Numbered from the stretch's first letter, positions 33,151-60,989 are shown. The stretch is DNA of 64,000 nucleotides from Escherichia phage ECOP18 (NC_105825.1), one strand, 5' to 3'. A program made the numbers and translations. Notes: a model not told the origin generated them from the sequence alone.

Positions 33151-33154
33151 AAAA

Positions 33155-34035: not shown

Positions 34036-34050
34036 TAACGGAGCGTTATT

Positions 34051-34254
34051 ATGAGCAATAAAATTATTGTAACCAAAATCAGTACAATGGTTGATGTTTT
34101 TTACGTGCCAGATACGCCGGAGAATCGGCAAGCGGTCGAGCGGGGCGAATATGATAAAGTGATTTATGATCACGATGGTTATTATCAGTATTTGGTGGAT
34201 TCCTACGGGGAGGAGGAGAAGATCACGCATCGACTACCGGAGGAGGGTTTATGA
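34051..34254 (+). CDS. hypothetical acidic protein (67 aa)
   Basis: ORF track; RBS acggag. Confidence 0.45.
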   Translation: MSNKIIVTKISTMVDVFYVPDTPENRQAVERGEYDKVIYDHDGYYQYLVDSYGEEEKITHRLPEEGL

Positions 34255-34406
34255 AACGATGGTTTAATCACTGGTACAAGCGGTTTTTAGTACGCCGTCG
34301 CAAGTCTAGGCATCAAGATGAGTGGCGGGAGTGGGCAAAGCGTAACGGTTGCCCGCTACTATAATAATCACGGGGCGCAACTATCGGGAAGTGCCCCCAA
34401 TTCTCA

Positions 34407-34427
34407 AATGAGAATGATTCTCATTTG
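34407..34427. repeat. Fur-box-like palindrome, copy 1
   Basis: aaatgagaatgattctcattt. Confidence 0.5.
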
Positions 34428-34620
34428 ACCGCGCCCGCGATGGTTAGCCTGCTAATGATTAGGGTGTTACGTGTCGCCTTGTGTGATCGTTAGCGAGCTA
34501 ACTAATTTTCAAGCCTCCTCCAATTTTGCCCTTGTTTTAGTATCTCCACCAAAATTAAACGCGTTAGAATGCGATCTAGGACGTTTTAACGCTATATTAG
34601 AATTATTCACTGCGTAGGAA

Positions 34621-34640
34621 TACTGTATATTTATACAGTA
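34621..34640. promoter_or_regulatory. LexA (SOS) box-like palindrome tactgtatatttatacagta
   Basis: CTGT-N8-ACAG, close to consensus TACTGTATATATATACAGTA. Confidence 0.5.
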
Positions 34641-34648
34641 GGATAAGC

Positions 34649-34657
34649 TGTGGATAA
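34649..34657 (-). promoter_or_regulatory. DnaA box (tgtggataa)
   Basis: Perfect reverse complement of TTATCCACA. Confidence 0.55.
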
Positions 34658-34721
34658 GTCTGTTAATAACACCCCAAAATGGCTAGGATTCTGTCAAGTC
34701 AAATCGTGCTGTTAATAAGTC

Positions 34722-34730
34722 TGTGGATAA
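34722..34730 (-). promoter_or_regulatory. DnaA box (tgtggataa)
   Basis: Perfect reverse complement of TTATCCACA. Confidence 0.55.
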
Positions 34731-34796
34731 CTTAAATAATAGTGTTTCTCACTTCCGTTCTTAAATACGAATCACTATCATTTGCGTTCCACTTTC

Positions 34797-34815
34797 TAAA
34801 TGAGAATCATTCTGC
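34797..34815. repeat. Fur-box-like palindrome, copy 2
   Basis: taaatgagaatcattctgc. Confidence 0.45.
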
Positions 34816-34901
34816 TTTTTAAAGGAGAATCGTTTCACTTCCTGAATAATTCTCACTTCCATTCTTAAATGCGAATTATTATCATTCTCATTCCGCTTTT
34901 T

Positions 34902-34930
34902 AAATGAGAATCATTCTCATTATCATTCGC
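34902..34930. repeat. Fur-box-like palindrome, copy 3 (perfect 19-bp palindrome AATGAGAATCATTCTCATT)
   Basis: aaatgagaatcattctcattatcattcgc. Confidence 0.5.
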
Positions 34931-34964
34931 ATTCAGGCGAGCAGGGCAATTGCCCTGCGCTTTT

Positions 34965-35632
34965 GTGCAAATCCGACATTGCTCCACGGGTGTTACGTGC
35001 GGGCGTGTATGTGCGAATCCGACAATTTTTGGTAGTGTGCAAATCCGACCCGAAAAATTTTTATAGTGTGCAAATCCGACAATGAATTTTCCTAAAAACT
35101 CCAGCAATCACGAACTGCGTTCGAATCCTGTGGGGTATGTGCAAATCCGACACGGTTTTTCTAGGATTAAGATGTGCGAATCCGACAAGATTTTTGTGAC
35201 TTCGATTGGAGGGTGTGTGATTGTGTGAGTTTGGGGAGAAGTTGAGAGAGCGAGAAAAATTTGAGGGAACTGCGGGAGGGGCGCATGTTTGGTGCGGAGC
35301 ACCTGATTTGCGGGGATTTTGGGGAAGAGTTGAGAAGATTTGGGTTAATTTGAGATTAGTGCAGAAAAAGTAAAATTTTATTAGCTAAATGGAGCAAAAT
35401 AGCTTGACAAGTGAAAATTCTTGTGGCTCTAAAAACTCAGGCAATCATGGGCCTTCGGCCCGAAATAATGCTGCCATTTTCAGGAGATTATGTGTCCATG
35501 AAAACTCAGGCAATCATGGGCCTTCGGCCCGAAATAATGCTGCCATTTTCAGGAGATTATGTGTCCATGAAAACTTAGGCAATTGTGCAAATCCGACCAG
35601 TTTTTAAACTTATGTCAGTGTGCAAATCCGAC
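34965..35632 (+). repeat. dispersed direct-repeat family GTGC(A/G)AATCCGAC(A/C), eight copies
   Basis: Copies at 34965, 35011, 35037, 35068, 35139, 35174, 35585, 35619; each followed by a T/A-rich tract; spacing irregular. Confidence 0.7.
35432..35569 (+). repeat. perfect tandem duplication, 2 x 69 bp, each unit with GGGCC-TTCG-GCCC hairpin
   Basis: Unit aaaactcaggcaatcatgggccttcggcccgaaataatgctgccattttcaggagattatgtgtccatg repeated head to tail. Confidence 0.8.
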
Positions 35633-35677
35633 AGTAATTTCTGGAAATGTGTTTTGGAAAAATGCCCTCTAGAAATA

Positions 35678-35749
35678 ACCGCCCTCCCAATAACCGCCCT
35701 GTATTAAACCGCCTAGTATATGTTCCTAGAAACTTAGGAGAACCGCCCT
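35678..35749 (+). repeat. short direct repeats aaccgccct (3-4 copies)
   Basis: Copies at 35678, 35692 and 35741, plus a degenerate copy at 35707. Confidence 0.5.
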
Positions 35750-36077
35750 AGAAAGAGGGAGTATTTCGTGAGAACTCTGGAGTTTCTAGGAAAGTGTTGT
35801 GCCATCCTAGCAGAAGAGCGGCAACCGGTGTATCATCTTGAACACAAATATTGCCTTTAAATATTTTTAGTTATTTAAAAGTAAATATACCCCCATTTCA
35901 TGTGAGATTCCTCGTGGGGCGCGTGAGTATTACGGAAGAACTCTAATATTGGCCCGCGCTAAGACTAGCCGCTATAGCACAGACGCAAATAGAGTTGTAA
36001 TAATCATCGCCCCTAGAGTTCACAATAAGAGTTATTGTTAATCTATGAGATTATTATAACATACATTTTTAATAACG

Positions 36078-36833
36078 TCAAGAAGATTTTACTAATGTTT
36101 TTGGATTCTTCTTGGCTTTGAGATATATCCCTTTAGATGCTAGATAGATATATGTTGCTAGAAATGAAGATTCTGATCCCGATTCCTCATAGGTTAACGT
36201 ACCTCTAGGGTATTTATTTGTTTTAGGAGCATAGTTAAGCACAGCCGCAGTTAATGACCCTAATCCTAGAACATCTGCAAGACGTCTAAAGGTATTCTCT
36301 TCATCATGGATAGCATAAAGAATGTTATCTTCAATATCCGTTAATGGAATTTTACGGGTATGAGATACTGCAATCCGTGCTATCATAGCTCCAATTGTTT
36401 TATTAATATCCTCGAAAGAAACACTCTCCATATATTTTAGAGGGGGAAGATGGTCATATTTACATTTCTTAGGTGGAATAAGAAGTTGTTCAGGATAAGC
36501 CTCTAGTGCCTGACGAACGTTTGCTTCTGGATATGTTGGTAAAGGTTCATCTATAATAACATGTAAGAAATTAGCTCTGTGCCCCTTAGCAGTTGGATCT
36601 AAAGACTTCAATATTTTGTTCATATCCACGTATGAATACGCTAGATCTGCTTGAGGAGCATTAATATCAAACTTAATCTTCTTACCTTCCCATTTAGCAG
36701 GGAACATCTCACAAACAAACATTACTGCATGTTTAACATCTGGCTCTAGCTCTGATAGACATTTGTGATCTGCTGTTACTGCTAAAGCGAGTATATTCTT
36801 AAATTTATTAGCTTCTTCAATCATATATCCCAT
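36078..36833 (-). CDS. hypothetical early protein (251 aa)
   Basis: ORF track; no motif recognised. Confidence 0.45.
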   Translation of the reverse strand: MGYMIEEANKFKNILALAVTADHKCLSELEPDVKHAVMFVCEMFPAKWEGKKIKFDINAPQADLAYSYVDMNKILKSLDPTAKGHRANFLHVIIDEPLPTYPEANVRQALEAYPEQLLIPPKKCKYDHLPPLKYMESVSFEDINKTIGAMIARIAVSHTRKIPLTDIEDNILYAIHDEENTFRRLADVLGLGSLTAAVLNYAPKTNKYPRGTLTYEESGSESSFLATYIYLASKGIYLKAKKNPKTLVKSS

Positions 36834-37162
36834 GCCTGCTGACTATTATCACTAACTTGTGTCTTTTTCTTTCTTTGTGGTTTAAAAGCTCCTTTAGTAT
36901 TGCTTCTATTAGGCTCTAATTTATACCACAGCATTCCTAGCTGGTTAACCATATGAGCAACATTTCTAGGAGTCAATGGTGGTAGAAATTCGCAGTTTGA
37001 TATTTCCACTAATATATTAAGTAACTCTGTCTCTTTAGCTTTACTGTTTACTACCACCACGTATTCTAATGTTTCTACCTCGGAATCCTCGTCTTTATAG
37101 TAGAGGCTAAGAGTAATTAAATTGTCACCAGCAGGAGTTATTTTTGTTTTACCAAATATCAT
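36821..37162 (-). CDS. hypothetical early protein (113 aa)
   Basis: ORF track. Confidence 0.4.
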   Translation of the reverse strand: MIFGKTKITPAGDNLITLSLYYKDEDSEVETLEYVVVVNSKAKETELLNILVEISNCEFLPPLTPRNVAHMVNQLGMLWYKLEPNRSNTKGAFKPQRKKKTQVSDNSQQAWDI

Positions 37163-37755
37163 TAATTACCTCTCTTATCTTCATTAATAGCAGCTCCCAA
37201 CGCCTCCATAATAGCATCCTCTAAACTTCCATGTTTACCAGGATTATTAAAATGAATAGTACAAACAGAACTCCTAGAAACTCCAGCATCCACAGGTGCT
37301 ACGCTTCGCATATCAGATTCAAAAGCTTCTTGAGTATGTTTCAACTGCACAGAAGGGCCGTAATCTTCACCAACTCGATAAGATTGATTAGACGACAGCG
37401 TACCACCGCATGGAACATTGTGTAAATCCGATGATTTATTTAACAGTGCAATACCGCCTTTTGACCACGGGTCACTAACAGTGGTACTGGGACGATTTAC
37501 CTCAGTCTTCACGAGTTTATAACCAGCGTCTATTAGTGCATTAATCAGGTTATCAGCTGGGATGCGAGCCGTGCCAAAAATCTTACGAGCATCTTCAAGC
37601 TTACCTTCAAAATCTTTACACGCTCTAAGGTCGGTGTGTGCAAATGTTAGCTTCATAGATTTGAATTGTACAGTAGCAGTTAAATCTTTAAAGCTATAAT
37701 CCCATGTGTTCAGTTCATGGTCTAGTACTAATTGAATAGGTTGTTGTGTAAACAT
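37162..37755 (-). CDS. hypothetical early protein (197 aa)
   Basis: ORF track. Confidence 0.45.
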   Translation of the reverse strand: MFTQQPIQLVLDHELNTWDYSFKDLTATVQFKSMKLTFAHTDLRACKDFEGKLEDARKIFGTARIPADNLINALIDAGYKLVKTEVNRPSTTVSDPWSKGGIALLNKSSDLHNVPCGGTLSSNQSYRVGEDYGPSVQLKHTQEAFESDMRSVAPVDAGVSRSSVCTIHFNNPGKHGSLEDAIMEALGAAINEDKRGN

Positions 37756-37940
37756 TATTTATTCTCCAGTTTGTCTAACAGTTTATGGGCTGCTAGATTA
37801 TATTGTTTGAGTTCACGATTAAGGATTTGGTTCTCACACTTTAGCTCTAGATTCTTGTTGTTAAGAATGTTGCAGATTAGTAGAAGTGCTAGTATTAGTA
37901 ACAGAGAACCTACGAGCATTAAAAGAAAAAGAGTTTCCAT
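37755..37940 (-). CDS. small membrane protein (61 aa)
   Basis: TM helix then coiled segment. Confidence 0.35.
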   Translation of the reverse strand: METLFLLMLVGSLLLILALLLICNILNNKNLELKCENQILNRELKQYNLAAHKLLDKLENK

Positions 37941-38173
37941 TATTTAATTCCCATGTAACGTTTGAGATATATGATGAAGTCTTCTGCTGTATGCTCTACG
38001 CTACCTTGAGCTACGAATAGCTTGAGAGCTTCACGTTGTAACTTAAGAGCAGCCAACTCACCCCGTAATTTTACCAGATCTTCTGCTAGTTCTCTAGCTC
38101 TACGCATAATAGCAAAAGATACAAGTACTACGATGAATAACATAACTACTAAAATAATTGCTATGATTTCCAT
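37940..38173 (-). CDS. small membrane protein (77 aa)
   Basis: TM helix then coiled segment. Confidence 0.35.
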   Translation of the reverse strand: MEIIAIILVVMLFIVVLVSFAIMRRARELAEDLVKLRGELAALKLQREALKLFVAQGSVEHTAEDFIIYLKRYMGIK

Positions 38174-38451
38174 ATTAACATCCAGCTTTTATCACACATT
38201 TGGGCATGATCTATCAGTTCATTCATTGATGTGTTGTTATCATAAATGCACTCTAGTATATACTTTCTGTCAAATTCGTCAACCAAATATTCTACATTAT
38301 TTATTACTACTTTATACAGATCTGGGACTAGAGAGCATGTATTTGGTACGGGGCGACTGCTTAAGTCTATTTCATTATAGCCCCATGTTGTTTTAAATAG
38401 TTTGTTACTAAGTGCTGCTAATGGATTTGACCATATAATATAGCTACTCAC
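38161..38451 (-). CDS. hypothetical protein (96 aa)
   Basis: ORF track. Confidence 0.4.
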   Translation of the reverse strand: MSSYIIWSNPLAALSNKLFKTTWGYNEIDLSSRPVPNTCSLVPDLYKVVINNVEYLVDEFDRKYILECIYDNNTSMNELIDHAQMCDKSWMLIWKS

Positions 38452-38992
38452 TATTTATCTCCATTCTTAACTTTGAAAACTTATTATACCAAACTATATG
38501 ATTATCGTCAATTACAAATTTATGATAACATGCTGGTACGGTATAAGTTCCATAATCCGTGACACGCTGCACAACCTTGTGTGCACACAGTCGACAACCG
38601 TGCCCTTCTAAATGAGATCTAGCCGTTTGCCAGTAATAACCATCATGATCCGGACAATAGATCTCGACTTGCTGTTGCATTGTTTTATAATTTACACGCT
38701 CATACCCAAAGAAAGCTCCATGAGCTGCAACAGCTTTCTTGATAAATATAAGGTTTAGTGCTTCTTGCTGAAAGTCGGGATGTAGCTGCTTAATCTTATT
38801 TCTATTAATAGATCCATCAGATTTGATAAACCTATTTATTGGGAAGTTGTTAGCTTCCTCGATTAATAATTCATTTACTTTTTCTCTCATATTAGATATT
38901 CTCACAGCTAAGGTAGAAGCATTCGTAAGCATCACCAGTAAACTCTTTATCTTGTAGTATACACTTAGCCTGGTCTTGTGGTACTCCGGCAT
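38444..38992 (-). CDS. hypothetical protein with C-terminal Cys/His cluster (182 aa; true start may be internal)
   Basis: ORF track; overlaps next ORF by 100 nt. Confidence 0.4.
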   Translation of the reverse strand: MPEYHKTRLSVYYKIKSLLVMLTNASTLAVRISNMREKVNELLIEEANNFPINRFIKSDGSINRNKIKQLHPDFQQEALNLIFIKKAVAAHGAFFGYERVNYKTMQQQVEIYCPDHDGYYWQTARSHLEGHGCRLCAHKVVQRVTDYGTYTVPACYHKFVIDDNHIVWYNKFSKLRMEINSE

Positions 38993-53239: not shown

Positions 53240-53315
53240 TGGTAGTTAGTAGTGGATTTGAACCACTGTAGTCGCTCCGTATGAAGGAGGTGCATAACCA
53301 CTCTGCCAACTAACT
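53240..53315 (-). tRNA. tRNA, anticodon CAT (Met, fMet or Ile2)
   Basis: Manual fold: 7-bp acceptor AGTTAGT/ACTAACT, T-arm AGTGG-TTCAAAT-CCACT, loop TTCATAC, CCA encoded. Confidence 0.55.
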
Positions 53316-53482
53316 AGTTAATTCTTTATAGGTTAGATCTAGAAGATCTTTCTTACTGATAAGTCCTTCTCTATATTGGTCAATAAACATATCTATTCTA
53401 GAGTTCTCTGAGACTTCTATATCAGAAAGTTCAGCAAATATTTTTGCAAGTTTATCAATATCTTCCATACATAACCTTAATT

Positions 53483-53559
53483 TGGTACTCCGGGAGGGAT
53501 TTAAACCCCCGATCTCTCGGTTATCAGCCGAGTGCTTTAGATCGCTAAGCTACCGAAGC
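53483..53559 (-). tRNA. tRNA-Ile (anticodon GAT)
   Basis: Manual fold: acceptor GCTTCGG/CCGGAGT, anticodon stem CTCGG/CCGAG, loop CTGATAA. Confidence 0.65.
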
Positions 53560-53560
53560 A

Positions 53561-53788
53561 TTAACATTTTACAGCAGAACGTTTGCCATTTCTAGGTGCA
53601 CCTGGAAGTCGTGCACGTTCTGCCATTCTTCTCTTAATCTTTGAGATATTTTCTAGTGTTTGTTCCTCCGGCTTAATACCTGAAACACTACACCACTGAT
53701 TACCATCCCATGCGGTAATGATCATAACACCATTACTCATGATCTTTTCTGTAAAAGTAATCCTCATTATAGCAACTCGTCTAAGCAA
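53561..53788 (-). CDS. hypothetical protein (75 aa)
   Basis: ORF track. Confidence 0.35.
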   Translation of the reverse strand: MLRRVAIMRITFTEKIMSNGVMIITAWDGNQWCSVSGIKPEEQTLENISKIKRRMAERARLPGAPRNGKRSAVKC

Positions 53789-54060
53789 GAGGTATATTTA
53801 AGTTTACCATCTTTATCTACTTTGATTTCGACTTCCGCTCGTGGTACTTGATGAACTACACCATGAATCATCTTATAGCGAATGCCTTTAGCTGGTTCAT
53901 GCTCTTTTGGAAATACTTGCTTAACCGTTACTACCTTAAAACCCTCACGCGGTGTTAACACTACTACTTGATCACCTTCTTTGATCTTCCAAGAGCCAGG
54001 AAATTCATAGGTATAGCGTTGACCACCAGTTTGGAACACAACAGAAAGATAACGTTTCAT
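53767..54060 (-). CDS. hypothetical protein (97 aa)
   Basis: ORF track. Confidence 0.4.
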   Translation of the reverse strand: MKRYLSVVFQTGGQRYTYEFPGSWKIKEGDQVVVLTPREGFKVVTVKQVFPKEHEPAKGIRYKMIHGVVHQVPRAEVEIKVDKDGKLKYTSCLDELL

Positions 54061-54090
54061 TTGGCTTCCCTCTCATTAATTTATATAAAT

Positions 54091-54119
54091 ATTATAACAA
54101 TAAATAAGAGAGAAAGCAA
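54091..54119 (-). promoter_or_regulatory. early sigma70-type promoter (-35 TTGCTT, 17 bp, -10 TATAAT)
   Basis: Read on minus strand. Confidence 0.6.
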
Positions 54120-54127
54120 ATGAATTT

Positions 54128-54322
54128 TTAATAAAGTTTAGTCACTTCATAAACTATACTACGAGATTCTTTATTACGTTCTATTAAATTAGAATATGCT
54201 TTTTCAGCTTCATTTTTAGTATTAAAGTCTATAACGTGGGAGGTATTCGCTCTATTTGATTGACTATACCAGATAACTACTAATAATTTAAACATAATAG
54301 TCCTTAAGTTGGTGCTGGGCAC
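54128..54322 (-). CDS. hypothetical protein (64 aa)
   Basis: ORF track; 3' end abuts tRNA. Confidence 0.3.
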   Translation of the reverse strand: MPSTNLRTIMFKLLVVIWYSQSNRANTSHVIDFNTKNEAEKAYSNLIERNKESRSIVYEVTKLY

Positions 54323-54396
54323 AGGATTCGAACCTGTAACGGGATTACTCCTCCTGATTACAAATCAGGTGCATTCAACCATTCTGCCGACCCAGC
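54310..54396 (-). tRNA. tRNA with long variable region; anticodon loop reads TGT (identity uncertain)
   Basis: Manual fold: acceptor GCTGGGT/GCCCAGC, T-arm ACAGG-TTCGAAT-CCTGT, anticodon stem CCTGA/TCAGG, 15-nt variable region. Confidence 0.45.
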
Positions 54397-54561
54397 AGAA
54401 CCCGTTATTTCAACGGGATTTCTTTTTCAATAATAGGAGACTTATCAGTCATAACCGCCATTGCCATTTGTTGTAGAAATTCAAAGGTGAAGGCTACACG
54501 TTCTTCACCAATCTCTACTTCTACACGTTTCTTTTGTTTATCGATCTTGACTTTTAGGTTA

Positions 54562-54813
54562 TCAGCCATTAGAGAGTACAGTACTGGTAGTTGGCAATAC
54601 TACAGATGAAGCAACAGTGTTTAAATGCTTTCTCCAGTCTAGGTTAAATTGTTTTCGAAACTCTTCATAAGGTTCTTCTGGATAAAAGCTAAAACCTCCT
54701 TTCTCATCATTCAGGATAACAGAGCCGTCAGTTTGTTCGTATGCTCGGTATGTTTCTCCAATAACAATAACTCGTTTTTCGGTACTTTTATTACGAAACT
54801 CAAAAACGTGCAT
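54562..54813 (-). CDS. hypothetical protein (83 aa)
   Basis: ORF track. Confidence 0.35.
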   Translation of the reverse strand: MHVFEFRNKSTEKRVIVIGETYRAYEQTDGSVILNDEKGGFSFYPEEPYEEFRKQFNLDWRKHLNTVASSVVLPTTSTVLSNG

Positions 54814-54829
54814 AATGTTTCCTTAAAGT

Positions 54830-54905
54830 TGGAGCGGCTAGAGGGAATCGAACCCTACTCAGCGAGGCTTGGAAGGCCTGCGGCACAACCCGTGTGCTTA
54901 ACCGC
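54830..54905 (-). tRNA. tRNA-Gly (anticodon TCC)
   Basis: Manual fold: acceptor GCGGTTA/TAGCCGC, loop CTTCCAA. Confidence 0.55.
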
Positions 54906-54913
54906 TTATTGTT

Positions 54914-54989
54914 TGGCTGGAGAAGGAGGAATCGAACCTACCATTAACGGAGTCAAAGGCCGTTGTGCTAACCGTTACACTACTCTCCA
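54914..54989 (-). tRNA. tRNA-Gln (anticodon TTG)
   Basis: Manual fold: acceptor TGGAGAG/TTCTCCA, discriminator G, loop CTTTGAC. Confidence 0.6.
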
Positions 54990-54995
54990 ATTATT

Positions 54996-55071
54996 TGGCT
55001 GGGATGCCACGGATCGAACGTGGAACCTTCGGAGTCAGAGGCCGACGATCTGCCAATTGATCTACATCCCA
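54996..55071 (-). tRNA. tRNA-Gln (anticodon CTG)
   Basis: Manual fold: acceptor TGGGATG/CATCCCA, D-stem GATC/GATC, loop CTCTGAC. Confidence 0.6.
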
Positions 55072-55083
55072 ATAATTTTTATT

Positions 55084-55278
55084 CTACGGAAAAATTGTTG
55101 TTGGCTCAGATTCTTCCAAACGTTTGCCTTCATGATCAACACGAATAACGCCGCATCCTTCGCAAATCACAACTGCACCATAACCTTCTTTGACCTCAGC
55201 TTCTGTAATCAAACCAGAAAGATCACCAGTATCTTTACCCCACATATCAATGGAGCATTGTTTGCAGAAATCAGCCAT
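55084..55278 (-). CDS. zinc-ribbon protein (64 aa)
   Basis: CKQC...CEGC motifs. Confidence 0.4.
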   Translation of the reverse strand: MADFCKQCSIDMWGKDTGDLSGLITEAEVKEGYGAVVICEGCGVIRVDHEGKRLEESEPTTIFP

Positions 55279-55303
55279 ATTTTATTTCCTATTTAAGTTA
55301 ATT

Positions 55304-55380
55304 TGGGGTGGCTAGTGAAATTCGAATCCACATAGGCCTGATTCACAATCAGGATCATTAACCAATTATGATATAGCCAC
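55304..55380 (-). tRNA. tRNA-His (anticodon GTG)
   Basis: Manual fold: acceptor GTGGCTA/TAGCCAC, anticodon stem CCTGA/TCAGG, loop TTGTGAA. Confidence 0.65.
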
Positions 55381-55603
55381 AATTGAAAACTCGCAGGGTT
55401 AGCGAAACCTTCCTCAATTAGCATGTTCTAGAATACTAATCAAGTTATCTCCTATTGCACGCAGCTCAAGACGAGTACGAATTTTCAATTGTGGCGGCTC
55501 TCAGAAACTCTTCTACTCTAGTCTTAGCAGCTTACTCCCGAACGCATGTCGGGGAAGTCTTACTAAGCGCATCAAATAGCACCGTTACACTTTGAGCCAT
55601 TGG

Positions 55604-55700
55604 TGTATTAAGAAGCAGAAGGACTTGAACCTTCACGAGATAGACCATTTATCTCAGCCGCTTTATGAGGTATGTTGCAGGGAGTGGATGTTCCCTATAA
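55604..55700 (-). ncRNA. tRNA-like element with canonical T-arm but no matching acceptor stem
   Basis: T-arm GAAGG-TTCAAGT-CCTTC and hairpin GAGATA-AATGGTC-TATCTC; no 5' acceptor partner found. Confidence 0.25.
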
Positions 55701-55746
55701 ACCTTTTAGGCAGCCCCGTCTACCGATTCCGGCATACTTCAGGATT

Positions 55747-55841
55747 TGGAGGTAGGTAAGGGGATCGAACCCTTACACCGTATCACTACGATCAACCGAT
55801 TTCAAGTCGGAGTCCAGCGCCAGCCATTGGATTGACCTACC
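55747..55841 (-). tRNA. tRNA-Ser (anticodon TGA), long variable arm
   Basis: Manual fold: acceptor GGTAGGT/ACCTACC, T-arm AAGGG-TTCGATC-CCCTT, loop CTTGAAA. Confidence 0.6.
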
Positions 55842-55853
55842 ATATAAATTGTT

Positions 55854-55944
55854 TGGCGGAAGAGGAGAGATTTGAACTCTCAAGCCGTTTTACCAGTCAG
55901 CCACTTTCCAAGCGGTTTTCGTCACCAATTCGATTTGCTCTTCC
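55854..55944 (-). tRNA. tRNA-Ser (anticodon GGA), long variable arm
   Basis: Manual fold: acceptor GGAAGAG/CTCTTCC, T-arm GAGAG-TTCAAAT-CTCTC, loop TTGGAAA. Confidence 0.5.
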
Positions 55945-55980
55945 AATAACAAGATGATGCCTCTATCACACCAGGCAGTT

Positions 55981-56053
55981 ACGCCTCGCTGGGATTCGAA
56001 CCCATTAAAACAGCTCAACCGAGATAGTAGGTTTAATTTACTCTGACCATCAA
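55981..56053 (-). ncRNA. tRNA-like element (GGGTTCGAATCCC T-arm) without recognisable acceptor stem
   Basis: T-arm at 55989-56005; no complementary 5' strand within tRNA distance. Confidence 0.25.
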
Positions 56054-56056
56054 ATT

Positions 56057-56133
56057 TGGTGCGTGACAAGGGATTCGAACCCTCAAAACCCGACTTCTAA
56101 GGACGGTATGTATGCCAATTCCATCAATCACGC
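56057..56133 (-). tRNA. tRNA, anticodon loop reads TAG (Leu-type anticodon on short-variable-arm scaffold)
   Basis: Manual fold: acceptor GCGTGAT/GTCACGC, T-arm GAGGG-TTCGAAT-CCCTT, loop CTTAGAA, 5-nt variable loop. Confidence 0.5.
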
Positions 56134-56138
56134 GTATT

Positions 56139-56217
56139 TGGTGGAGAATAACGGAATCGAACCGTTCTGATGTCCTCGGTGCAAGCGAGGTGTCCACTCC
56201 ATGCAGACCCATTCCCC
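56139..56217 (-). tRNA. tRNA-Ala (anticodon TGC)
   Basis: Manual fold: anticodon stem CCTCG/CGAGG, loop CTTGCAC, acceptor with G3-U70 pair. Confidence 0.6.
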
Positions 56218-56455
56218 AAATTATTTAGTTTACTAAGGCTATTAGCTCGGCGTAACTACAGCACCTTCGCTTCGAGCGGAAGGAACCGCGTCATCTCGCA
56301 AACCCGATACACTATTCAGTTGCCACTGAATCTAGTGGACTAATCTAGAACTTCTCCCGAATCGTAGGGATCGTGCTTTTTGGCAGCCAGTCCTAGGTCG
56401 AACTAATACCTTAGTGAACTATGATGAGGATTTCTCCTCATCAATTTATATAAAT

Positions 56456-56484
56456 ATTATAACAAGAAATTAAGCATTAAGCAA
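56456..56484 (-). promoter_or_regulatory. early sigma70-type promoter feeding leftward tRNA cluster
   Basis: -35 TTGCTT, 17-bp spacer, -10 TATAAT read on minus strand. Confidence 0.6.
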
Positions 56485-56502
56485 CTGCGTTTTTCTTGAA
56501 AT

Positions 56503-56581
56503 TGGTAGATCGCCTGGGACTCGAACCCAGAACCTTCCGATTAAAAGTCGGATGCTACTAAACCTATTGAGCTAGCGATCT
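56503..56581 (-). tRNA. tRNA-Lys (anticodon TTT)
   Basis: Manual fold: acceptor AGATCGC/GCGATCT, anticodon stem TCCGA/TCGGA, loop CTTTTAA. Confidence 0.65.
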
Positions 56582-56769
56582 ATTAGTAACCATTATACAC
56601 TTCTTTAATAGAGTGGACTTTTAAGTAAGGGTGATTAGTACTAAACTCTACCATTACTTCATCCCAATTTTTACCATAATGAGCGAGTAAGGATTTTGAT
56701 GTATTCTTACCTAACCGTTTGTCACTTACTACTAATCGAAATACTTTCATTTCGAAATCCTCTATTAAA

Positions 56770-56847
56770 ATGGAAGCGGGTGCAGGAATCGAACCTACCT
56801 CTTTCTAGCTTATGAGACTAGCGATCTCTACCAGAGATCTAACCCGC
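56770..56847 (-). tRNA. tRNA-Met-like (anticodon CAT), unpaired position 1-72
   Basis: Manual fold: loop CTCATAA, T-arm GTAGG-TTCGATT-CCTGC. Confidence 0.5.
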
Positions 56848-56853
56848 AATTGT

Positions 56854-56930
56854 TTGGTCAGTGCGGCAGGACTCGAACCTGCGACCCGAAGCATCCAAGG
56901 CTCCCACGCTACCAACTGCGCTACGCACTG
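56854..56930 (-). tRNA. tRNA-Pro (anticodon TGG)
   Basis: Manual fold: perfect acceptor CAGTGCG/CGCACTG, loop CTTGGAT. Confidence 0.65.
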
Positions 56931-56939
56931 TTAATTCTT

Positions 56940-57137
56940 TTATTGTGGAGGAATATTAATAATTCGTCCGTCTACACAATAAACGGTACTAGGAATTGTA
57001 CTATATATGTAGAAATTCTTTATATTACTCTCTCCGCCACAGAAATTTTTAGCAAATTCATACTCTTTATTAATGGTTGAGTCAAGTTTAAAACAACCAG
57101 TAAGTAGGAATACAGACAGCAGTAAAACTTTTTTCAT
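56940..57137 (-). CDS. small lipoprotein (65 aa)
   Basis: Signal peptide with lipobox LTGC; embedded in tRNA array. Confidence 0.5.
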   Translation of the reverse strand: MKKVLLLSVFLLTGCFKLDSTINKEYEFAKNFCGGESNIKNFYIYSTIPSTVYCVDGRIINIPPQ

Positions 57138-57169
57138 TTTGCTTTCCTTCTCAACACTTTATAAGGTAT

Positions 57170-57198
57170 ATTATACAGAGAATTAAGCATAATAGCAA
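57170..57198 (-). promoter_or_regulatory. early sigma70-type promoter (-35 TTGCTA, 17 bp, -10 TATAAT)
   Basis: Read on minus strand. Confidence 0.6.
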
Positions 57199-57347
57199 AT
57201 GAATTTTTAATAAATTTACTTATTGTGTAGGCCACCTGGAGGCTACCAACCCCACGGCTGACAAAGAAGTTTGCGAGACCTCTCTTAAGTGCCAGAATAG
57301 ACCCGCCGATCTATCGGAACCTACATAATAAGTAAACTTTATAGTGT

Positions 57348-57468
57348 CATTCTAGACAGGACTCGAACCTGTTATCACTTGTGCGGACTTACGAGAACCA
57401 TTCTTTCACTCGAATCGAACGAGCTTCTGCCCTCGCCAAGCTGGTTTCCCCATCAACCACGCTAGAAT
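57348..57468 (-). ncRNA. structured tRNA-like region (two T-arm-like hairpins inside a 7-bp inverted repeat)
   Basis: attctag...ctagaat terminal pairing, internal ACAGG-ACTCGAA-CCTGT and ACTCG-AATCGAA-CGAG hairpins. Confidence 0.25.
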
Positions 57469-57632
57469 GTTTGATTGTTTTCAGTGCAAGAGTCCGAGTC
57501 TTGGACACGACCGCTTCGCAAGTACATAGGCAGCTTATCATGAGTCAGCACTTCCGAATTGCTAGCTCCGTGTTCTGCACTGAAATTTTATTAGTTTAAC
57601 CGTAAAGTATTATCTACTTCACCATTAATTGT

Positions 57633-57938
57633 TCAGCATTCTTCTGGGATTGCTGGTGTAGCCTTATATTCCCACCATTCAGAACCGTCGTATTCACCAC
57701 GTTCTAACCAAGTTCCATCAGTAAACCACACGTTACCATAAAGCAATTGCCCACCGAAACCAGAATCATATTTAAAGTCTAGATTATTTAGAAAATCTTC
57801 AATATCTTTTTCTGTATAACCTACGGGTAACACCCAAACTTCTTTGTCCCCATAATAACCGAATTCTATCTTAATACACTTAACTTCAGAATTAATATTC
57901 TTTAAGGCAAGTAACAATTCTTCTTTAGCATTAATCAT
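57633..57938 (-). CDS. hypothetical protein (101 aa)
   Basis: ORF track. Confidence 0.4.
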   Translation of the reverse strand: MINAKEELLLALKNINSEVKCIKIEFGYYGDKEVWVLPVGYTEKDIEDFLNNLDFKYDSGFGGQLLYGNVWFTDGTWLERGEYDGSEWWEYKATPAIPEEC

Positions 57939-57964
57939 AGCATATTTCTCGTACTAGTTTAATT

Positions 57965-58041
57965 TGGCGCGACCGATGGGATTTGAACCCACATTCTCTC
58001 CCGTGACAGGGGAGTACCATTACCAAGCCAGCCCCGGTCGC
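57965..58041 (-). tRNA. tRNA-Asp (anticodon GTC)
   Basis: Manual fold: acceptor GCGACCG/CGGTCGC, anticodon stem CTCCC/GGGAG, loop CTGTCAC. Confidence 0.7.
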
Positions 58042-58050
58042 ATAATTCAT

Positions 58051-58236
58051 TTACTCAGCTTTGAGTTTTTCAATAGCTGCATTAAGTTCTTTAAGAAACT
58101 TTTTTCGTACATTAAGACGGTTGAGACTTACTAGTATATCATGTTTAAGTTCTTCGATGTATTTCTTCTCAACTTCAATATTGTTGATAGTGCTATCACG
58201 ATGAACTTCTAGCTGTGCAATTACATTCTTGGACAT
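58051..58236 (-). CDS. hypothetical coiled-coil protein (61 aa)
   Basis: ORF track. Confidence 0.35.
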   Translation of the reverse strand: MSKNVIAQLEVHRDSTINNIEVEKKYIEELKHDILVSLNRLNVRKKFLKELNAAIEKLKAE

Positions 58237-58337
58237 GCTTGTTTCCTCAGTTATTAATGAAAATGGTATCTGTGACTGAATTCGATGTCAGCAATGATAG
58301 CTGGTTGGCTACCGGTTTACTTAACTCTACACAGAAT

Positions 58338-58421
58338 TTGGCGGGCCGTGTAGGATTCGAACCTACGTTGTCTTTCGACATGGATTAACAGTCCACCGCC
58401 AAACCGCTTGGCTAACGACCC
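58338..58421 (-). tRNA. tRNA with extended variable hairpin; anticodon loop reads GTT (Asn-type)
   Basis: Manual fold: acceptor GGGTCGT/ACGGCCC, T-arm GTAGG-TTCGAAT-CCTAC, loop CTGTTAA, variable hairpin GTC-GAAA-GAC. Confidence 0.45.
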
Positions 58422-58572
58422 TAAATTTATATTGCTGACTAGGATTTTCACCTAGACGGAGTTAGCACCGTAGCGTGTAGCGGCATACCTCTCCAAACCG
58501 TGCCTCATCTTTCAATTACGGAGACAGTGTTCCTACGCGTGCCTGAATTGATTTAACAACTCTTTCAGCAAA

Positions 58573-58649
58573 TTGGACGACCGCATGAGATTTGAACTCA
58601 CATAAAAAGGATTTGCAATCCTTCGCCTAAGCCATTCAGCCAACGGTCG
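58573..58649 (-). tRNA. tRNA-Cys (anticodon GCA)
   Basis: Manual fold: acceptor CGACCGT/GCGGTCG, loop TTGCAAA. Confidence 0.6.
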
Positions 58650-58718
58650 ATTTATCTTGTTCTGTCATGTTGCTTCTCCAGTTCAATTTATGTAATTATT
58701 ATACAGAACTTTTGGAAA

Positions 58719-59006
58719 CTAAGCAACTACATTTTTTAAAAATTTGATGCCTTTCTTTTTCTTCTTATATTTCCACGTTAAGGGATTCTGTCGATTATGA
58801 ACGCTTGAGATCTTTGTCTCGTCAAAGTTCTTCAATATCATGTAATCACAGGATAATTGTTCTAATGGAATGTGATCACCGTCAAAAGCGTATACATAAG
58901 GCTGTTGACTAGCACGATAATGATAGACTTTGTTAATTCTACGTTTCAGCAACTTATCCGCGCAGTAAATAAAGAAGTTTTCAGGATGCATCAGCAGCTC
59001 CCTCAA
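58719..59006 (-). CDS. hypothetical protein (95 aa)
   Basis: ORF track. Confidence 0.4.
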   Translation of the reverse strand: MRELLMHPENFFIYCADKLLKRRINKVYHYRASQQPYVYAFDGDHIPLEQLSCDYMILKNFDETKISSVHNRQNPLTWKYKKKKKGIKFLKNVVA

Positions 59007-59089
59007 TTTGGTGCACCCTGTTCGTATCGAACGAACCTCTCAAGCTCTTCAGGCAAGCGCTAATCCATCTCAGCTAAAGGTGCAAATTT

Positions 59090-59166
59090 TGGCAAACCTA
59101 CTAGGACTTGAACCTAGACCGTACGGTTTTGGAGACCGACATGCTGTCCAGTAACACTCTAGGAAT
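59090..59166 (-). tRNA. tRNA-Trp-like (anticodon CCA), imperfect acceptor stem
   Basis: Manual fold: T-arm CTAGG-TTCAAGT-CCTAG, loop CTCCAAA; two acceptor mismatches. Confidence 0.4.
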
Positions 59167-59173
59167 GCAGGAT

Positions 59174-59250
59174 TGGCGTCCTGTGCGGGGATCGAACCCA
59201 CAAATCCTACCTTGAAAGGGTAGTGACTTTACCAGTTTGTCTAACAGGAC
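59174..59250 (-). tRNA. tRNA-Glu (anticodon TTC)
   Basis: Manual fold: acceptor GTCCTGT/ACAGGAC, anticodon stem CTACC/GGTAG, loop CTTTCAA. Confidence 0.7.
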
Positions 59251-59257
59251 TTAAATT

Positions 59258-59348
59258 TGGTGTTGGATGATGGAGTCGAACCACCCGAGACCCTTCCGAG
59301 TCGGCAGATTTACAGTCTGCTTCGCTACCTCTACGATACTAATCCAAC
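59258..59348 (-). tRNA. tRNA-Tyr (anticodon GTA), long variable arm
   Basis: Manual fold: acceptor GTTGGAT/ATCCAAC, anticodon stem GCAGA/TCTGC, loop CTGTAAA. Confidence 0.7.
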
Positions 59349-59476
59349 ATATTTAAAAGTATTCAAATACTAGTTTAAACACTTTTAGATATGTTTCCAA
59401 ATTAGATAACTATTATATCAAGTTTTATGGCACTGAGCAAGTCAAATTTTAAAGAACTTGCTCAGTGCTGTATTAG

Positions 59477-59752
59477 TTAGTCGAACTTAGGAGCGACAGT
59501 TAAGGAGAATGGAAGTTCGAAAACTTCTTCGCCCTCATCACTAACAGTAATTACACGACCTTTAAGTTCAGACATTGAAATATCAATATCAGCTTTTGCA
59601 TCTGGAGCCATGCCAGCTTCAATACATTTAGCTTTAACTTCCGGCAGAAGTTCTACATCGTAGAAATAAAGCCATTCAATCTCACCTTCCCAGCCTTCCC
59701 AGGATTTACAGATTGCACTTTCAATACCAGTTGCTATAACACGATTTTGCAT
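59477..59752 (-). CDS. hypothetical acidic protein (91 aa)
   Basis: ORF track. Confidence 0.4.
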   Translation of the reverse strand: MQNRVIATGIESAICKSWEGWEGEIEWLYFYDVELLPEVKAKCIEAGMAPDAKADIDISMSELKGRVITVSDEGEEVFELPFSLTVAPKFD

Positions 59753-59781
59753 TCGTTAACTCCTTCATCAATTTATATAAC

Positions 59782-59810
59782 TATTATACCAGAAATTTAA
59801 AGCAAAAGGC
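59782..59810 (-). promoter_or_regulatory. early sigma70-type promoter (-35 TTGCCT, 17 bp, -10 TATAAT)
   Basis: Read on minus strand. Confidence 0.55.
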
Positions 59811-59842
59811 AAGTACATTTTTAAAAATTCTGTTTGGAGGAG

Positions 59843-60049
59843 CTAAACTCCAGATTCTTCAGCTAAGTCTAGGCTAATAAGAGATATAGCCATAATTGCT
59901 GCTCCGTGTTCTCTTTCTCCTGTCTCTTTAGCTAGGGTTATAATATCAAGAAATTGCTTATGAAAGTCTGCAACCTCTTGAGTCATACCTGCCTCAGCAA
60001 TCATGCCTTTAAGCATGAAACGTTGTGCGGTAATTTCGGGATTAGCCAT
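59843..60049 (-). CDS. hypothetical protein (68 aa)
   Basis: ORF track. Confidence 0.4.
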   Translation of the reverse strand: MANPEITAQRFMLKGMIAEAGMTQEVADFHKQFLDIITLAKETGEREHGAAIMAISLISLDLAEESGV

Positions 60050-60224
60050 GTTGTTTCTCCAGTTTCATGTTTAATAGTCTACAAATAAAATCAATGTCTT
60101 CATCTGTGCCTAGATCTCTATCTTCAAGAGTTGCCTTGAAGTTTTTCGTCAATTCCATGAGGATAACTTCTATAGAACGACGTGTTGGCGGAGGTGGATG
60201 TCTATACATCTTATTTCCTTAAGT

Positions 60225-60301
60225 TGGTAGGGGTGGTGGGATTCGAACCCACAAAACCTGAATTTTAAGTCCAGTACCTATGCCAATTCGATTACACCCC
60301 C
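60225..60301 (-). tRNA. tRNA, anticodon loop reads TAA (Leu-type anticodon on short-variable-arm scaffold)
   Basis: Manual fold: acceptor GGGGGTG/CACCCCT, T-arm GTGGG-TTCGAAT-CCCAC, loop CTTAAAA. Confidence 0.5.
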
Positions 60302-60402
60302 ATGTAATCAGTTTATTAGTTGATACATATTATAGCCTAGTGAAAATCCTACTACTAGTCCCACAAACCAACCAATATAATAATCTTTTAGTTTCACAGG
60401 TA

Positions 60403-60588
60403 TTATCCTCGTTCAATATCTAGGGAAACACCGCAGTTAGGATTAATACCTGTACCGTTGCAATTTGAACAAATCCAGATATTGCAAAAAGTATCTCCTG
60501 CTTCTGCATCAGAACTTTCACCAATTCCCCTACACTCAGGGCAGGCACATTCTTCTAGCTCTTGCTTGAGTTCTTGAAACTTGGACAT
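60403..60588 (-). CDS. zinc-ribbon protein (61 aa)
   Basis: CxxC...CxxC pairs. Confidence 0.4.
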   Translation of the reverse strand: MSKFQELKQELEECACPECRGIGESSDAEAGDTFCNIWICSNCNGTGINPNCGVSLDIERG

Positions 60589-60597
60589 ATAGTCTCC

Positions 60598-60790
60598 TTA
60601 GTCAATTACTTTTGAGGCTTCAAGGGAGTCGATATAGTATACGTTTTCTACCATAATCATATAATCTGCCACTTTATCCATAGCTTGGGCCTCAGAGGTA
60701 GCTCTGGCTAACCTATATCCTTTTTTATATTCATCCGGGTATTCTCTATCTTGAATAAATACAACATAAACTATGTATAATTCCACTTGT
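60598..60790 (-). CDS. hypothetical protein (~63 aa, GTG start)
   Basis: RBS aggggа-like AGGGGA 6 nt upstream of GTG at 60788-60790; ORF-track N-terminal extension overlaps two tRNAs and is rejected. Confidence 0.3.
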
Positions 60791-60816
60791 AATCCCCTAA
60801 TTAAGTTGGTGGCTCC

Positions 60817-60894
60817 CCGAGGATTCGAACCTACGTACCTTCCGGTTATGAGCCGGGTGCTCATACCATATGAGCTTGAGAACCAGAATTTGGC
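60817..60894 (-). tRNA. tRNA, anticodon CAT (Met, fMet or Ile2), extended D hairpin
   Basis: Manual fold: acceptor GGTTCTC/GGGAGCC with two G-U pairs, loop CTCATAA. Confidence 0.45.
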
Positions 60895-60900
60895 GGAAGA

Positions 60901-60989
60901 AGTGGGAATCGAACCCACAAGGCTATATTTCAAACCGACAGATTAGCAATCTGCTGCAATACCGTTATGCTATTCTTCCGAATTTATAA
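60901..60989 (-). tRNA. tRNA-Ser (anticodon GCT), long variable arm
   Basis: Manual fold: acceptor GGAAGAA/TTCTTCC, T-arm GTGGG-TTCGATT-CCCAC, loop TTGCTAA. Confidence 0.6.

Follow-up and report, generated by a model that had tools for sequence, protein, structure and literature searches.

The window analysed here, a 64,000-nucleotide (nt) stretch of Escherichia phage ECOP18 (NC_105825.1), comes from a T5-type phage (Tequintavirus). When its positions 55300-57700 were compared by megablast with annotated phage genomes, 593 phage records matched, the best relatives being vB_EcoS_MM-1 and MM-2 (99.9% identity) and T5_ev212 (99.8%). The region is a leftward transfer RNA (tRNA) gene cluster, with 20 minus-strand genes called by ARAGORN from 53240 to 60979 and a further one by Rfam at its gathering threshold. 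An original prediction, made from the sequence alone, had flagged five stretches of this cluster as gaps holding tRNA-like fragments and hairpin-rich RNA. By sequence comparison, four of the flagged stretches are known stable-RNA genes of phage T5, so that the core finding is already known: 55440-55600 corresponds to RNAIII and RNAI, 55604-55700 to the 3' two-thirds of RNA1, 56221-56430 to RNA2H and 57348-57468 to RNA2. The fifth, 55981-56053, falls within a 112-nt spacer that we call X112. One of these RNAs, RNA2, is, as judged from alignments, a covariation-supported tRNA mimic and a widespread phage RNA family.

The identification is based on the T5 records AY543070 and AY692264 and on the BF23 tRNA region AJ604530, in which the RNAs are entered as misc_RNA features. 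Their notes read 'stable RNA with unknown functions' for RNAIII, RNAI, RNA2H and RNAIV, and 'tRNA-like stable RNA with unknown functions' for RNA1 and RNA2. All six were matched by blastn over their full length, in the same order and on the same strand as the T5 and BF23 features and between the same tRNA genes (Table 1). With order, strand, lengths and neighbours alike, the window RNAs are orthologues of the stable RNAs, and we hold their identity and their non-coding nature with high confidence. The suggestion that these stretches are processed small RNAs gains support from their 85-99% identity to 'stable RNA' features and from their interspersion with tRNAs in the same transcription units. 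RNAIII, RNA2H, RNAIV, RNA2 and an unannotated 121-nt domain next to RNA2 are 97-99% identical to T5, compared with 88-90% for the neighbouring T5.065-like and T5.067-like coding sequences (CDSs) and 97% for the T5.068-like one. The RNAs are thus conserved as well as or better than most neighbouring CDSs, the exceptions being RNAI (92%) and RNA1 (85%), the latter the most diverged from T5 and carrying compensatory changes.

The T5 stable RNAs were reportedly first described in the 1980s by Ksenzenko, Shlyapnikov, Kryukov, Bayev and colleagues. Our literature search, which did not extend to the older primary literature, found no functional or transcriptomic work on them.

Table 1. Features of the tRNA cluster between 55382 and 57590 of the window.
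Feature	Position	Strand	Evidence
RNAIII, 106 nt, directly 5' of tRNA-His	55382-55487	-	99% identity to T5 rnaIII (blastn)
RNAI, 107 nt	55492-55598	-	92% identity to T5 rnaI (blastn)
RNA1, cloverleaf core ~55610-55741	55599-~55742	-	85% identity to T5 rna1 (blastn)
tRNA-Ser(UGA), atypical; context, not gap	55747-55841	-	annotated in LR597659
tRNA-Ser(GGA), atypical; context, not gap	55854-55944	-	annotated in LR597659; tRNAS2 in BF23
X112, unannotated, 112 nt, between tRNA-Leu(UAG) and tRNA-Ser(GGA)	55945-56056	-	highly conserved; four-way junction suggested by three lineages
RNA2H, 172 nt, first product downstream of P13b	56237-56408	-	97% identity to T5 rna2H (blastn)
Promoter P13b, early	56430-56503	-	96% identity to T5-annotated promoter (blastn)
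Promoter P13a, early	57143-57217	-	91% identity to T5 annotation (blastn)
RNAIV, 103 nt	57224-57326	-	97% identity to T5 rnaIV (blastn)
RNA2	57345-57469	-	97% identity to T5 rna2 (blastn)
121-nt hairpin domain, unannotated, between T5.067-like CDS and RNA2	57470-57590	-	99% identity to T5 (unannotated gap there)

The flagged stretches do lie inside leftward tRNA transcription units, as the two early promoters located by identity to the T5 annotation make clear; P13a was also recovered by a consensus scan (TTGCTA-17-TATAAT, 57198-57170). Downstream of P13b the order is RNA2H, tRNA-Ala, tRNA-Leu, the 112-nt spacer, tRNA-Ser2, tRNA-Ser1, RNA1, RNAI, RNAIII and tRNA-His, and RNA2 and RNAIV stand upstream of P13a, in the preceding transcription unit. 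The three canonical T-arms of the original prediction are also there, as exact minus-strand matches to GGTTCRANTCC at 55621-55631, 55992-56002 and 57359-57369; the motif occurs 19 times in the window, always on the minus strand, against 0.11 occurrences expected from shuffles. Likewise, all five stretches are free of tRNA calls by ARAGORN and by Rfam, both at the gathering threshold and at E<=10 with relaxed filters. The interval between the first two T-arm stretches (55700-55981) is not empty, as it holds two atypical tRNA-Ser genes. Where the prediction erred was in denying all three T-arms a matching acceptor stem: RNA1 and RNA2 both have one, and only in 55945-56056 is there none beside the T arm, that spacer being closed by a distal two-part stem.

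RNA2 is framed by a perfect 8-base-pair (bp) acceptor stem, CAUUCUAG/CUAGAAUG, which lies within the very stretch said to lack one and whose first pair is equivalent to the -1:73 pair. Inside it come a D stem of 5 bp whose loop contains GG, a 5-bp equivalent of the anticodon stem and the T arm. In place of the anticodon loop stands a conserved module of ~55 nt (57382-57436), built from an invariant GGGY/RUCC (GGG/UCC) helix, a covarying hairpin with a second T-loop (G-UUCGAUU-C in the window) and a probable 3-bp GNN/NNC helix. The near-invariant strand of the module reads UGAAAGAAUGGUUC.CGUAA.UCCGCA (family consensus UGAAAG.AUGGU..CGUAA.UCCGCA), and window RNA2 agrees with the consensus of the module as a whole, GGGY...G-UUCRAUU-C...AUGG...CGUAA.UCCGCA. 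T5-type phages have ACA as the 3' tail of RNA2, and some homologues have CCA, which is encoded in Klebsiella phage GlastoCabaret, Providencia phage PSTCR5 and some metagenomic copies; window RNA2 has no encoded CCA. Two early proposals were dropped. A CGAG/CUCG helix from the single-sequence fold was unsupported by variation and gave way to GGGY/RUCC, and an origin from an intron-containing tRNA was rejected, the insert being flanked by neither U33 nor an anticodon remnant and, at 50 nt, falling short of a group I intron.

With 57224-57590 as query, distant blastn matches came from all T5-like genera and, beyond them, from the T4-like myovirus Acinetobacter phage 133, where the RNA2 match fills an unannotated 105-nt gap between tRNA-Gly and tRNA-Cys. 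Homologues were collected from Yersinia phiR2-01, Pectobacterium My1, Klebsiella GlastoCabaret, Serratia Slocum, Providencia PSTCR5, Acinetobacter ZZ1 and 133, and one 164-kb IMG/VR contig, and from these and a hand-drawn structure we built a covariance model, R1. Under R1, window RNA2 scores 146 bits, phage members 79-147 bits and metagenomic members 47-147 bits. The model also aligns ordinary tRNAs end to end at 15-36 bits, which quantifies how tRNA-like RNA2 is.

Over 21 sequences, 96.5% of the cells of the RNA2 structure are paired (30-44% in slid controls) and 25 of the 32 pairs show compensatory changes, a level reached by 0 of 500 shuffles. A pattern scan of metagenomes then yielded 83 loci, of which R1 accepted 47 as real. 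These amount to 38 distinct sequences; their sources are lakes, sediments, soil and gut, and contigs of 150-570 kb carry some of them. In these 38 sequences 92.9% of cells are paired, compared with 37-48% in slid controls, 27 of 32 pairs are compensatory, double-change cells number 407 against 116 in shuffles, and the covariation score is 0.79 against 0.18. Among the 38 non-redundant RNA2-family loci, 20 have a tRNA gene within 400 nt, always on the same strand, and the element itself was never called by ARAGORN. The extent of RNA2, its covariation support, the module consensus and the model appear to be new, as our search, older primary literature aside, found no prior description. A scan of GTDB genomes for the module gave 21 pattern matches, of which the model upheld only 2, each on a contig that is likely phage or prophage; with the other 19 being chance matches, a bacterial origin of the module was rejected.

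Several neighbours of RNA2-family elements deserve mention. In Acinetobacter phage ZZ1 (locus L048), the RNA2-like element at 1503-1612 stands 16 nt upstream of an open reading frame (ORF) of 76 amino acids (1628-1858) annotated as 'RF-1 domain peptide chain release factor'. We considered a connection with release factors or ribosome rescue and put the arrangement down to coincidence, since the downstream ORFs are unrelated in phage 133, L036, L054 and L073. On a 167-kb phage-like contig, a 'tRNA-Pyl' called by ARAGORN with a CUA anticodon (an amber suppressor; L073 7053-7127) adjoins an RNA2-family element. Longer elements of 107-131 nt score 19-24 bits under R1, within the tRNA range, at 8967-9097 and 9118-9232 of a T4-like contig (L036) and at 905-1011 in Pectobacterium My1 (L033); these may be further tRNA-like RNAs with inserts.

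RNA1 follows a similar plan. Its acceptor stem of 6-7 bp begins with a U.U or G.U pair, and its 5' strand (55735-55741) falls just outside 55604-55700. The stem is followed by a 3-bp D stem with loop GAAUCGGUAGA (UG-CCG-GAAUCGGUAGA-CGG), a long variable arm and a T arm, an arrangement of D arm and frame that matches the type-II pattern of E. coli tRNA-Leu. The anticodon arm is lengthened into a rod of three stacked stems, and its apical loop, ACAUCCAC, is invariant among 13 variants except for ACAUCCGC in T5. These variants, from T5-like phages, Yersinia phiR2-01 and Klebsiella phages, are 77-100% identical; 95.4% of their cells are paired, compared with 40-51% in slid controls, and 10 of 35 pairs are compensatory. 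Homologues in phiR2-01 and in the Klebsiella T5-like phages have 76-81% identity. The trailer after the acceptor stem is variable, and the CACCA of the window is not conserved; window RNA1 is not taken to encode a terminal CCA. A pattern scan of IMG/VR for RNA1 was too loose, returning 80 matches among which only T5-like contigs were real by blastn. The tRNA-Leu-like reading of RNA1 appears new, no prior description having been found.

The third T-arm stretch belongs to X112, in which three hairpins stand inside a distal closing stem (UGAUG/CAUCA plus CCUACUAUC/GAUAGAGG): a small one, one with the T-loop (UGGG-UUCGAAU-CCCA) and a third (AGGCG-UAAC-UGCCU). T5 has no counterpart and carries instead, at that position, the HNH homing-endonuclease gene hegC; BF23 has the spacer, with 3769-3880 left blank in its record. 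X112 occurs in 250 phage records, in 192 of them at >=95% identity, and is as conserved as the flanking tRNAs. We compared the window with two diverged lineages, one from Klebsiella (L053 563-673) and one at L162 10808-10908. In the end stem, UGAUG/CAUCA changes to UGAUG/CGUCA; in the second stem, CUAUC/GAUAG is replaced by CGGCU/AGUCG and CUGCU/AGUAG; in the T-loop hairpin, UGGG/CCCA by CAGG/CCUG and CGGG/CCCG; and in the third hairpin, AGGCG/UGCCU by GGGCU/AGCCC. The minimum-free-energy fold of the Klebsiella copy is the same four-way junction. The helices were read by eye, as MAFFT misplaced the Klebsiella deletion and the counting tool was not applied, and with three lineages only, conservation of the structure is suggestive, not statistical. 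A structured RNA in this spacer appears to be new, with no prior description found. An X112-like core also follows a tRNA on a 545-kb IMG/VR contig (L163 ~1740-1870), with CUGUUUUAA, the T-loop hairpin ACGG-UUCGAAU-CCGU and a GCAA-capped small hairpin, the element being closed by AAGGCG/CGCCUU.

In the predicted folds of all the remaining RNAs the 5' and 3' ends are paired. The description of these stretches as hairpin-rich stands in so far as they form closed multi-hairpin folds; single-sequence energies are only modestly better than those of shuffles, with z = -1.3 to -2.9 for the RNAs and z = -0.1 for 55945-56056. RNAIII has a 12-bp terminal stem (z = -2.9) that, with 8 nt added on each side, extends to a ~17-bp duplex, CCACAAUUGAAAAUUCG/CGAGUUUUCAAUUGUGG, bridging the RNAI 3' end and the tRNA-His 5' end. 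RNAI has a tRNA-like 3' end, its terminal stem (GGCUC/GAGCC) being followed by GCCA, whose CCA is kept in 16/16 variants, with 2 compensatory and 5 one-sided pairs. RNA2H has a 10-bp terminal stem (z = -2.4), a compensatory A-U to G-C change in that stem, and, by pair counts, 1 compensatory and 6 one-sided pairs. In RNAIV, where ACA follows the terminal stem, 3 pairs are compensatory and 9 one-sided, and 3/792 cells are broken. The 121-nt domain is closed by a stem of ~12 bp, UUUCAGUGCA.../...UGCACUGAAA (z = -1.8), and as a conserved hairpin domain it appears new, no prior description having been found.

Variable columns avoid paired positions in RNAIII (2/74 paired against 6/32 unpaired, p = 0.009), RNA2H (p = 0.015), RNAIV (p = 0.03) and, over 15 variants, the 121-nt domain (1/72 against 12/49, p = 7e-5), in tests that are partly circular, as the structures were predicted from the same alignments. 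RNAI shows no such concentration at unpaired positions, and RNAIII, with 0 compensatory pairs, varies too little to judge. Outside the flagged stretches, RNA3, a 'putative tRNA-like RNA' in T5, is of the same kind: at 58264-58336 on the minus strand of the window it has 73 nt, its terminal stem is 6 bp long and its 3' end ACCA is conserved, with 3 compensatory pairs among 10 variants.

These patterns of variation bear directly on two other explanations of the stretches. The first is that they are decaying tRNA pseudogenes or neutral spacers left by tRNA turnover through recombination and homing endonucleases, which is what 'degenerate tRNAs' would mean. The setting would suit such decay, as the tRNA region is a mosaic relative to T5, with several non-homologous tRNA replacements, and is dispensable in the laboratory (PMC11464382), and the 3' tails ACA, CUA and CGA are each one substitution from CCA. 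RNA1 and RNA2 are indeed tRNA-derived in shape. Their stems, and those of X112, are nonetheless kept by compensatory substitutions; the non-tRNA inserts are the best-conserved parts and hold the most invariant sequence of RNA1 and RNA2; and RNA2 is common to Demerecviridae, Acinetobacter T4-like phages and the contigs of 150-570 kb. We therefore regard decay as very improbable.

The second is that the stretches encode small proteins, as several GenBank records have it. Automatic 'hypothetical protein' CDSs are annotated there (CDS0082-0086 and CDS0090 in PV577657, g056 of phiR2-01 over an RNA2 homologue, and Slocum_106), and window ORFs of 30-72 amino acids run over the stretches. The called ORFs vary in strand and frame between records, however, substitutions track base-pairing and not codon structure, and the expert annotations of T5 and BF23 give RNAs, not CDSs. 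Nor did we find any ORF of >59 amino acids on the transcribed strand wholly within the RNA stretches. Small proteins are thus scarcely credible here, and covariation disfavours protein coding as it does pseudogene decay. The hypothetical CDSs, often on the opposite strand, overlie RNAIII, RNAI, RNA1, the 112-nt spacer, RNA2H and RNA2 homologues, for instance at 456-1344 and 2390-2542 of L002 (PV577657), 252-398 of L031 (phiR2-01) and 3942-4121 of L049 (Slocum), and are probably spurious.

How far the RNAs resemble tRNA differs among them. Like the canonical molecule (RF00005), RNA1 and RNA2 have an acceptor stem, a D arm with GG, a T arm with GGUUCRANUCC and an equivalent of the anticodon stem, and they are co-transcribed with tRNAs; the helices of their cloverleaf (acceptor, D arm, T arm) are supported by covariation. 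Unlike tRNA, they have 48-55 nt in place of a 7-nt anticodon loop with U33 and mostly lack an encoded CCA. ARAGORN calls neither of them, RF00005 matches neither even at E<=10, and RNA2 has no Rfam family; the Rfam covariance-model search that had been proposed as a check called no tRNA in the flagged stretches, and another proposed check, conservation across T5-like genomes, found the RNAs present, with covariation in RNA1 and RNA2. As modelled, the two are tRNA-like for processing, yet they fall short of tRNA in their anticodon loop and in their model score. RNAI, RNAIII, RNAIV and RNA2H do not form a tRNA cloverleaf, and the four-way junction of X112 differs in arrangement.

The lack of an anticodon loop bears on the idea that the RNAs are decoys or substitutes for host anticodon nucleases, in the way that T5 tRNA-Lys and tRNA-Tyr act against PARIS and retron-Eco7. 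In its favour, the RNAs sit in the same clusters as T5-family tRNA genes, which are established counter-defence tools (PMC11464382; PMC11555353, PMC13056530). RNA1, RNA2 and X112 nevertheless lack the 7-nt anticodon loop, the site that these nucleases read and cut, so that RNA1 and RNA2 are not anticodon-nuclease decoys in the simple sense. In RNA sequencing with Schlafen, the internal 3' ends of non-coding RNAs were not significantly different between cells expressing the active nuclease and those expressing a nuclease-dead mutant. We judge this explanation improbable.

Other tRNA-like RNAs offer partial parallels. Transfer-messenger RNA (tmRNA) shares the tRNA-like acceptor and T-arm frame, the replacement of the anticodon arm by another structure and processing like that of a tRNA. 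Unlike tmRNA, RNA2 has no tag reading frame, the AUG-led frame of the module is not conserved as coding, and CCA is not conserved. A tmRNA-like tag or small ORF starting at the module AUG had been considered and was rejected, as the next codon is CUC, CAC, CCC or CGC (non-synonymous) and no stop is conserved. ARAGORN calls no tmRNA in the window, and Rfam gives only chance-level tmRNA fragments (E 1.9-7.7) at 56112-56166, over tRNA-Leu and tRNA-Ala and off the stable RNAs.

Phage T4 has small stable RNAs whose role is likewise unknown, species 1 and species 2 (rnaC and rnaD), at the end of its tRNA cluster (PMC3014915). Like RNA2, T4 rnaC has at its end a stem resembling an acceptor, a canonical T arm and an ACA tail, and rnaD ends in CACCA. 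Homology of RNA2 with rnaC, suggested by a shared GAUUCGAG..CGUAAG..CCG and the terminal ACA, was not demonstrated by the covariance model: R1 gives rnaC 19.4 bits, in the range of ordinary tRNAs, and its alignment is confined to the acceptor stem, the T arm and ACA, the module columns being skipped.

YrlA, a bacterial Y RNA also reported from phages, is a non-coding mimic of the tRNA elbow through its T-loop and D-loop sequences (PMC4201824). It ends on a Ro-binding stem opposite the tRNA-like end, unlike RNA2, whose ends form the acceptor stem; a YrlA search in Rfam gave no match at E<=10, and no Ro/Rsr gene lies beside the copies examined. Plant-mitochondrial t-elements and MALAT1 mascRNA, too, are tRNA-shaped elements within longer transcripts that recruit RNase P or RNase Z. 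They are minimal, however, lack a conserved extra module and belong to other kingdoms and enzymes, so the likeness is one of analogy only.

That analogy underlies the main rival, in which the elements act in cis as tRNA-like or hairpin 'punctuation', marks that steer cleavage of tRNA and mRNA precursors by RNase P, RNase III and RNase E. Such marks would set the ends, stability and translation of the interspersed small mRNAs, as t-elements do. The positions of the elements are consistent with it: they occur at junctions of CDSs and tRNAs, RNA2 and the 121-nt domain directly after the T5.067-like CDS and T5 RNA1 after T5.063, and several RNA2-family copies in T4-like phages have an ORF start 16-24 nt downstream. 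It has also been suggested that processing of the primary transcript restricts how far the T5 homing-endonuclease ORFs of the cluster are expressed (PMC2330249). An acceptor/T-arm minihelix would suffice for this, though, which leaves the 55-nt module of RNA2, shared by very distant phages, and the apical loop of RNA1 unexplained. Moreover, the depositors call these RNAs stable, that is, accumulating products, and the genes downstream of RNA2-family copies are mutually unrelated. Marks acting in cis are in our view unlikely.

We instead favour, with a probability of roughly 70%, the reading that the stretches are small structured non-coding RNA genes within early leftward tRNA operons, six of them orthologues of the T5 and BF23 stable RNAs and two of them conserved spacers, and that their RNAs are processed products. 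All would be cut from polycistronic tRNA precursors by the host machinery for tRNA maturation. A terminal stem with a short 3' tail (GCCA in RNAI; ACA in RNA2 and RNAIV) is the geometry suited to RNase P and 3' trimming, and it is from this that we infer tRNA-type excision; the ~17-bp RNAIII duplex and the 12-bp stem of 57470-57590 may be RNase III-type sites. Taking together the geometry of the terminal stems, the RNAI CCA and the long duplexes, we have moderate confidence in excision by RNase P, RNase III and 3' trimming.

What the RNAs might do afterwards is more tentative. With a folded insert in place of the anticodon loop, RNA1 and RNA2 cannot decode, and the acceptor, D arm and T arm that they retain are the part of a tRNA that processing enzymes read. 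It is possible, and we say so with low confidence, that both build up as tRNA-body mimics that do not decode, with inserts through which they engage a specific partner. The RNAs might then bind or titrate a factor that reads tRNA shape and not the anticodon, candidates being a tRNA-targeting defence nuclease, a tRNA-processing or tRNA-modifying enzyme, or the elbow of another tRNA. In RNA2, the second T-loop beside the invariant AUGG could form a second 'elbow', which we offer as an idea and not a result, and the module could fold as such an elbow or as a T-loop platform. We would speculate that RNA2 founds an undescribed, widespread class of 'double-elbow' tRNA mimics acting in trans, and X112 a second, unannotated class, built as a four-way junction that contains a T-loop hairpin; for the former, the ribosomal L1 or L5 region, RNase P and a modification enzyme were also considered as targets.

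Several points count against the reading of the stretches as processed non-coding RNA genes. Their 'stable RNA' status comes from what the depositors of T5 and BF23 noted in GenBank, folding energies of single sequences are unremarkable, and the RNA2 pair counts derive from model-fitted alignments, which lean towards the model. Two deletion mutants are viable on laboratory hosts: T5-123 (deletion 29191-32442), which removes RNAIII, RNAI, RNA1 and RNA2H, and T5Mos (deletion 30661-38625), which removes RNA2H, RNAIV and RNA2 (PMC11464382). Of the fragments tried for rescue in that work, two failed to rescue, and the remaining one also covers part of rna2H by the AY543070 coordinates. No stable RNA tied to a defence system was found in the literature. 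Finally, neither RNA1 nor most RNA2 homologues conserve an encoded CCA, which argues against a role that depends on aminoacylation.

Phage tRNA clusters are counter-defence arsenals, T5 tRNA-Lys defeating PARIS and T5 tRNA-Tyr defeating retron-Eco7. Among the T5 tRNAs lie half a dozen stable RNAs that have had no assigned role since they were catalogued, and two of them are now covariation-supported tRNA mimics with dedicated inserts. Conservation of RNA2 from T5 to T4-like and other large uncultured phages, on contigs of up to 570 kb, turns an annotation footnote into a testable question. For RNA2 there is now a defined family, an alignment and a model, its invariant nucleotides are targets for mutation, and T5-123 and T5Mos provide viable deletion backgrounds. 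There is also a practical problem, in that automatic pipelines miss three atypical tRNAs and place spurious protein genes over the RNAs.

Compared with T5, the window lineage has the 112-nt structured spacer at the position of hegC and lacks tRNA-Val, T5.063 and hegD; by blastn (window 55742-56236 and 56503-57140) the tRNA cluster is a mosaic in which hegC, hegD, T5.063 and tRNA-Val are absent. Among the genes present, tRNA-Ala, tRNA-Leu(UAG), tRNA-Pro and the CDS at 56940-57137 have no blastn match to their T5 counterparts; identity is just 77% for tRNA-Lys and 100% for tRNA-fMet and tRNA-Asp, and the match of tRNA-Ser(UGA) is only partial.

At the start of the P13b transcript, just before RNA2H, lies a perfect 9-bp hairpin, UGAUGAGGA-GAAA-UCCUCAUCA (56409-56443, minus strand), the plus-strand image of which was scored as terminator-like by a scan. 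Three tRNAs of the window escape standard callers. Two are the tRNA-Ser genes of Table 1, both missed by ARAGORN and both sub-threshold against the Rfam tRNA-Sec model: tRNA-Ser(UGA), with a full cloverleaf and the anticodon UGA, scores 37.6 bits, and tRNA-Ser(GGA) 22.9 bits. The third is an atypical tRNA-Gly(UCC) with a long D stem at 54830-54906 (minus strand), which reaches only 31 bits against tRNA-Sec and is called neither by ARAGORN nor by RF00005 at the gathering score. It occupies the position of T5 tRNAG1, which the T5 record describes as convertible into an efficient suppressor.

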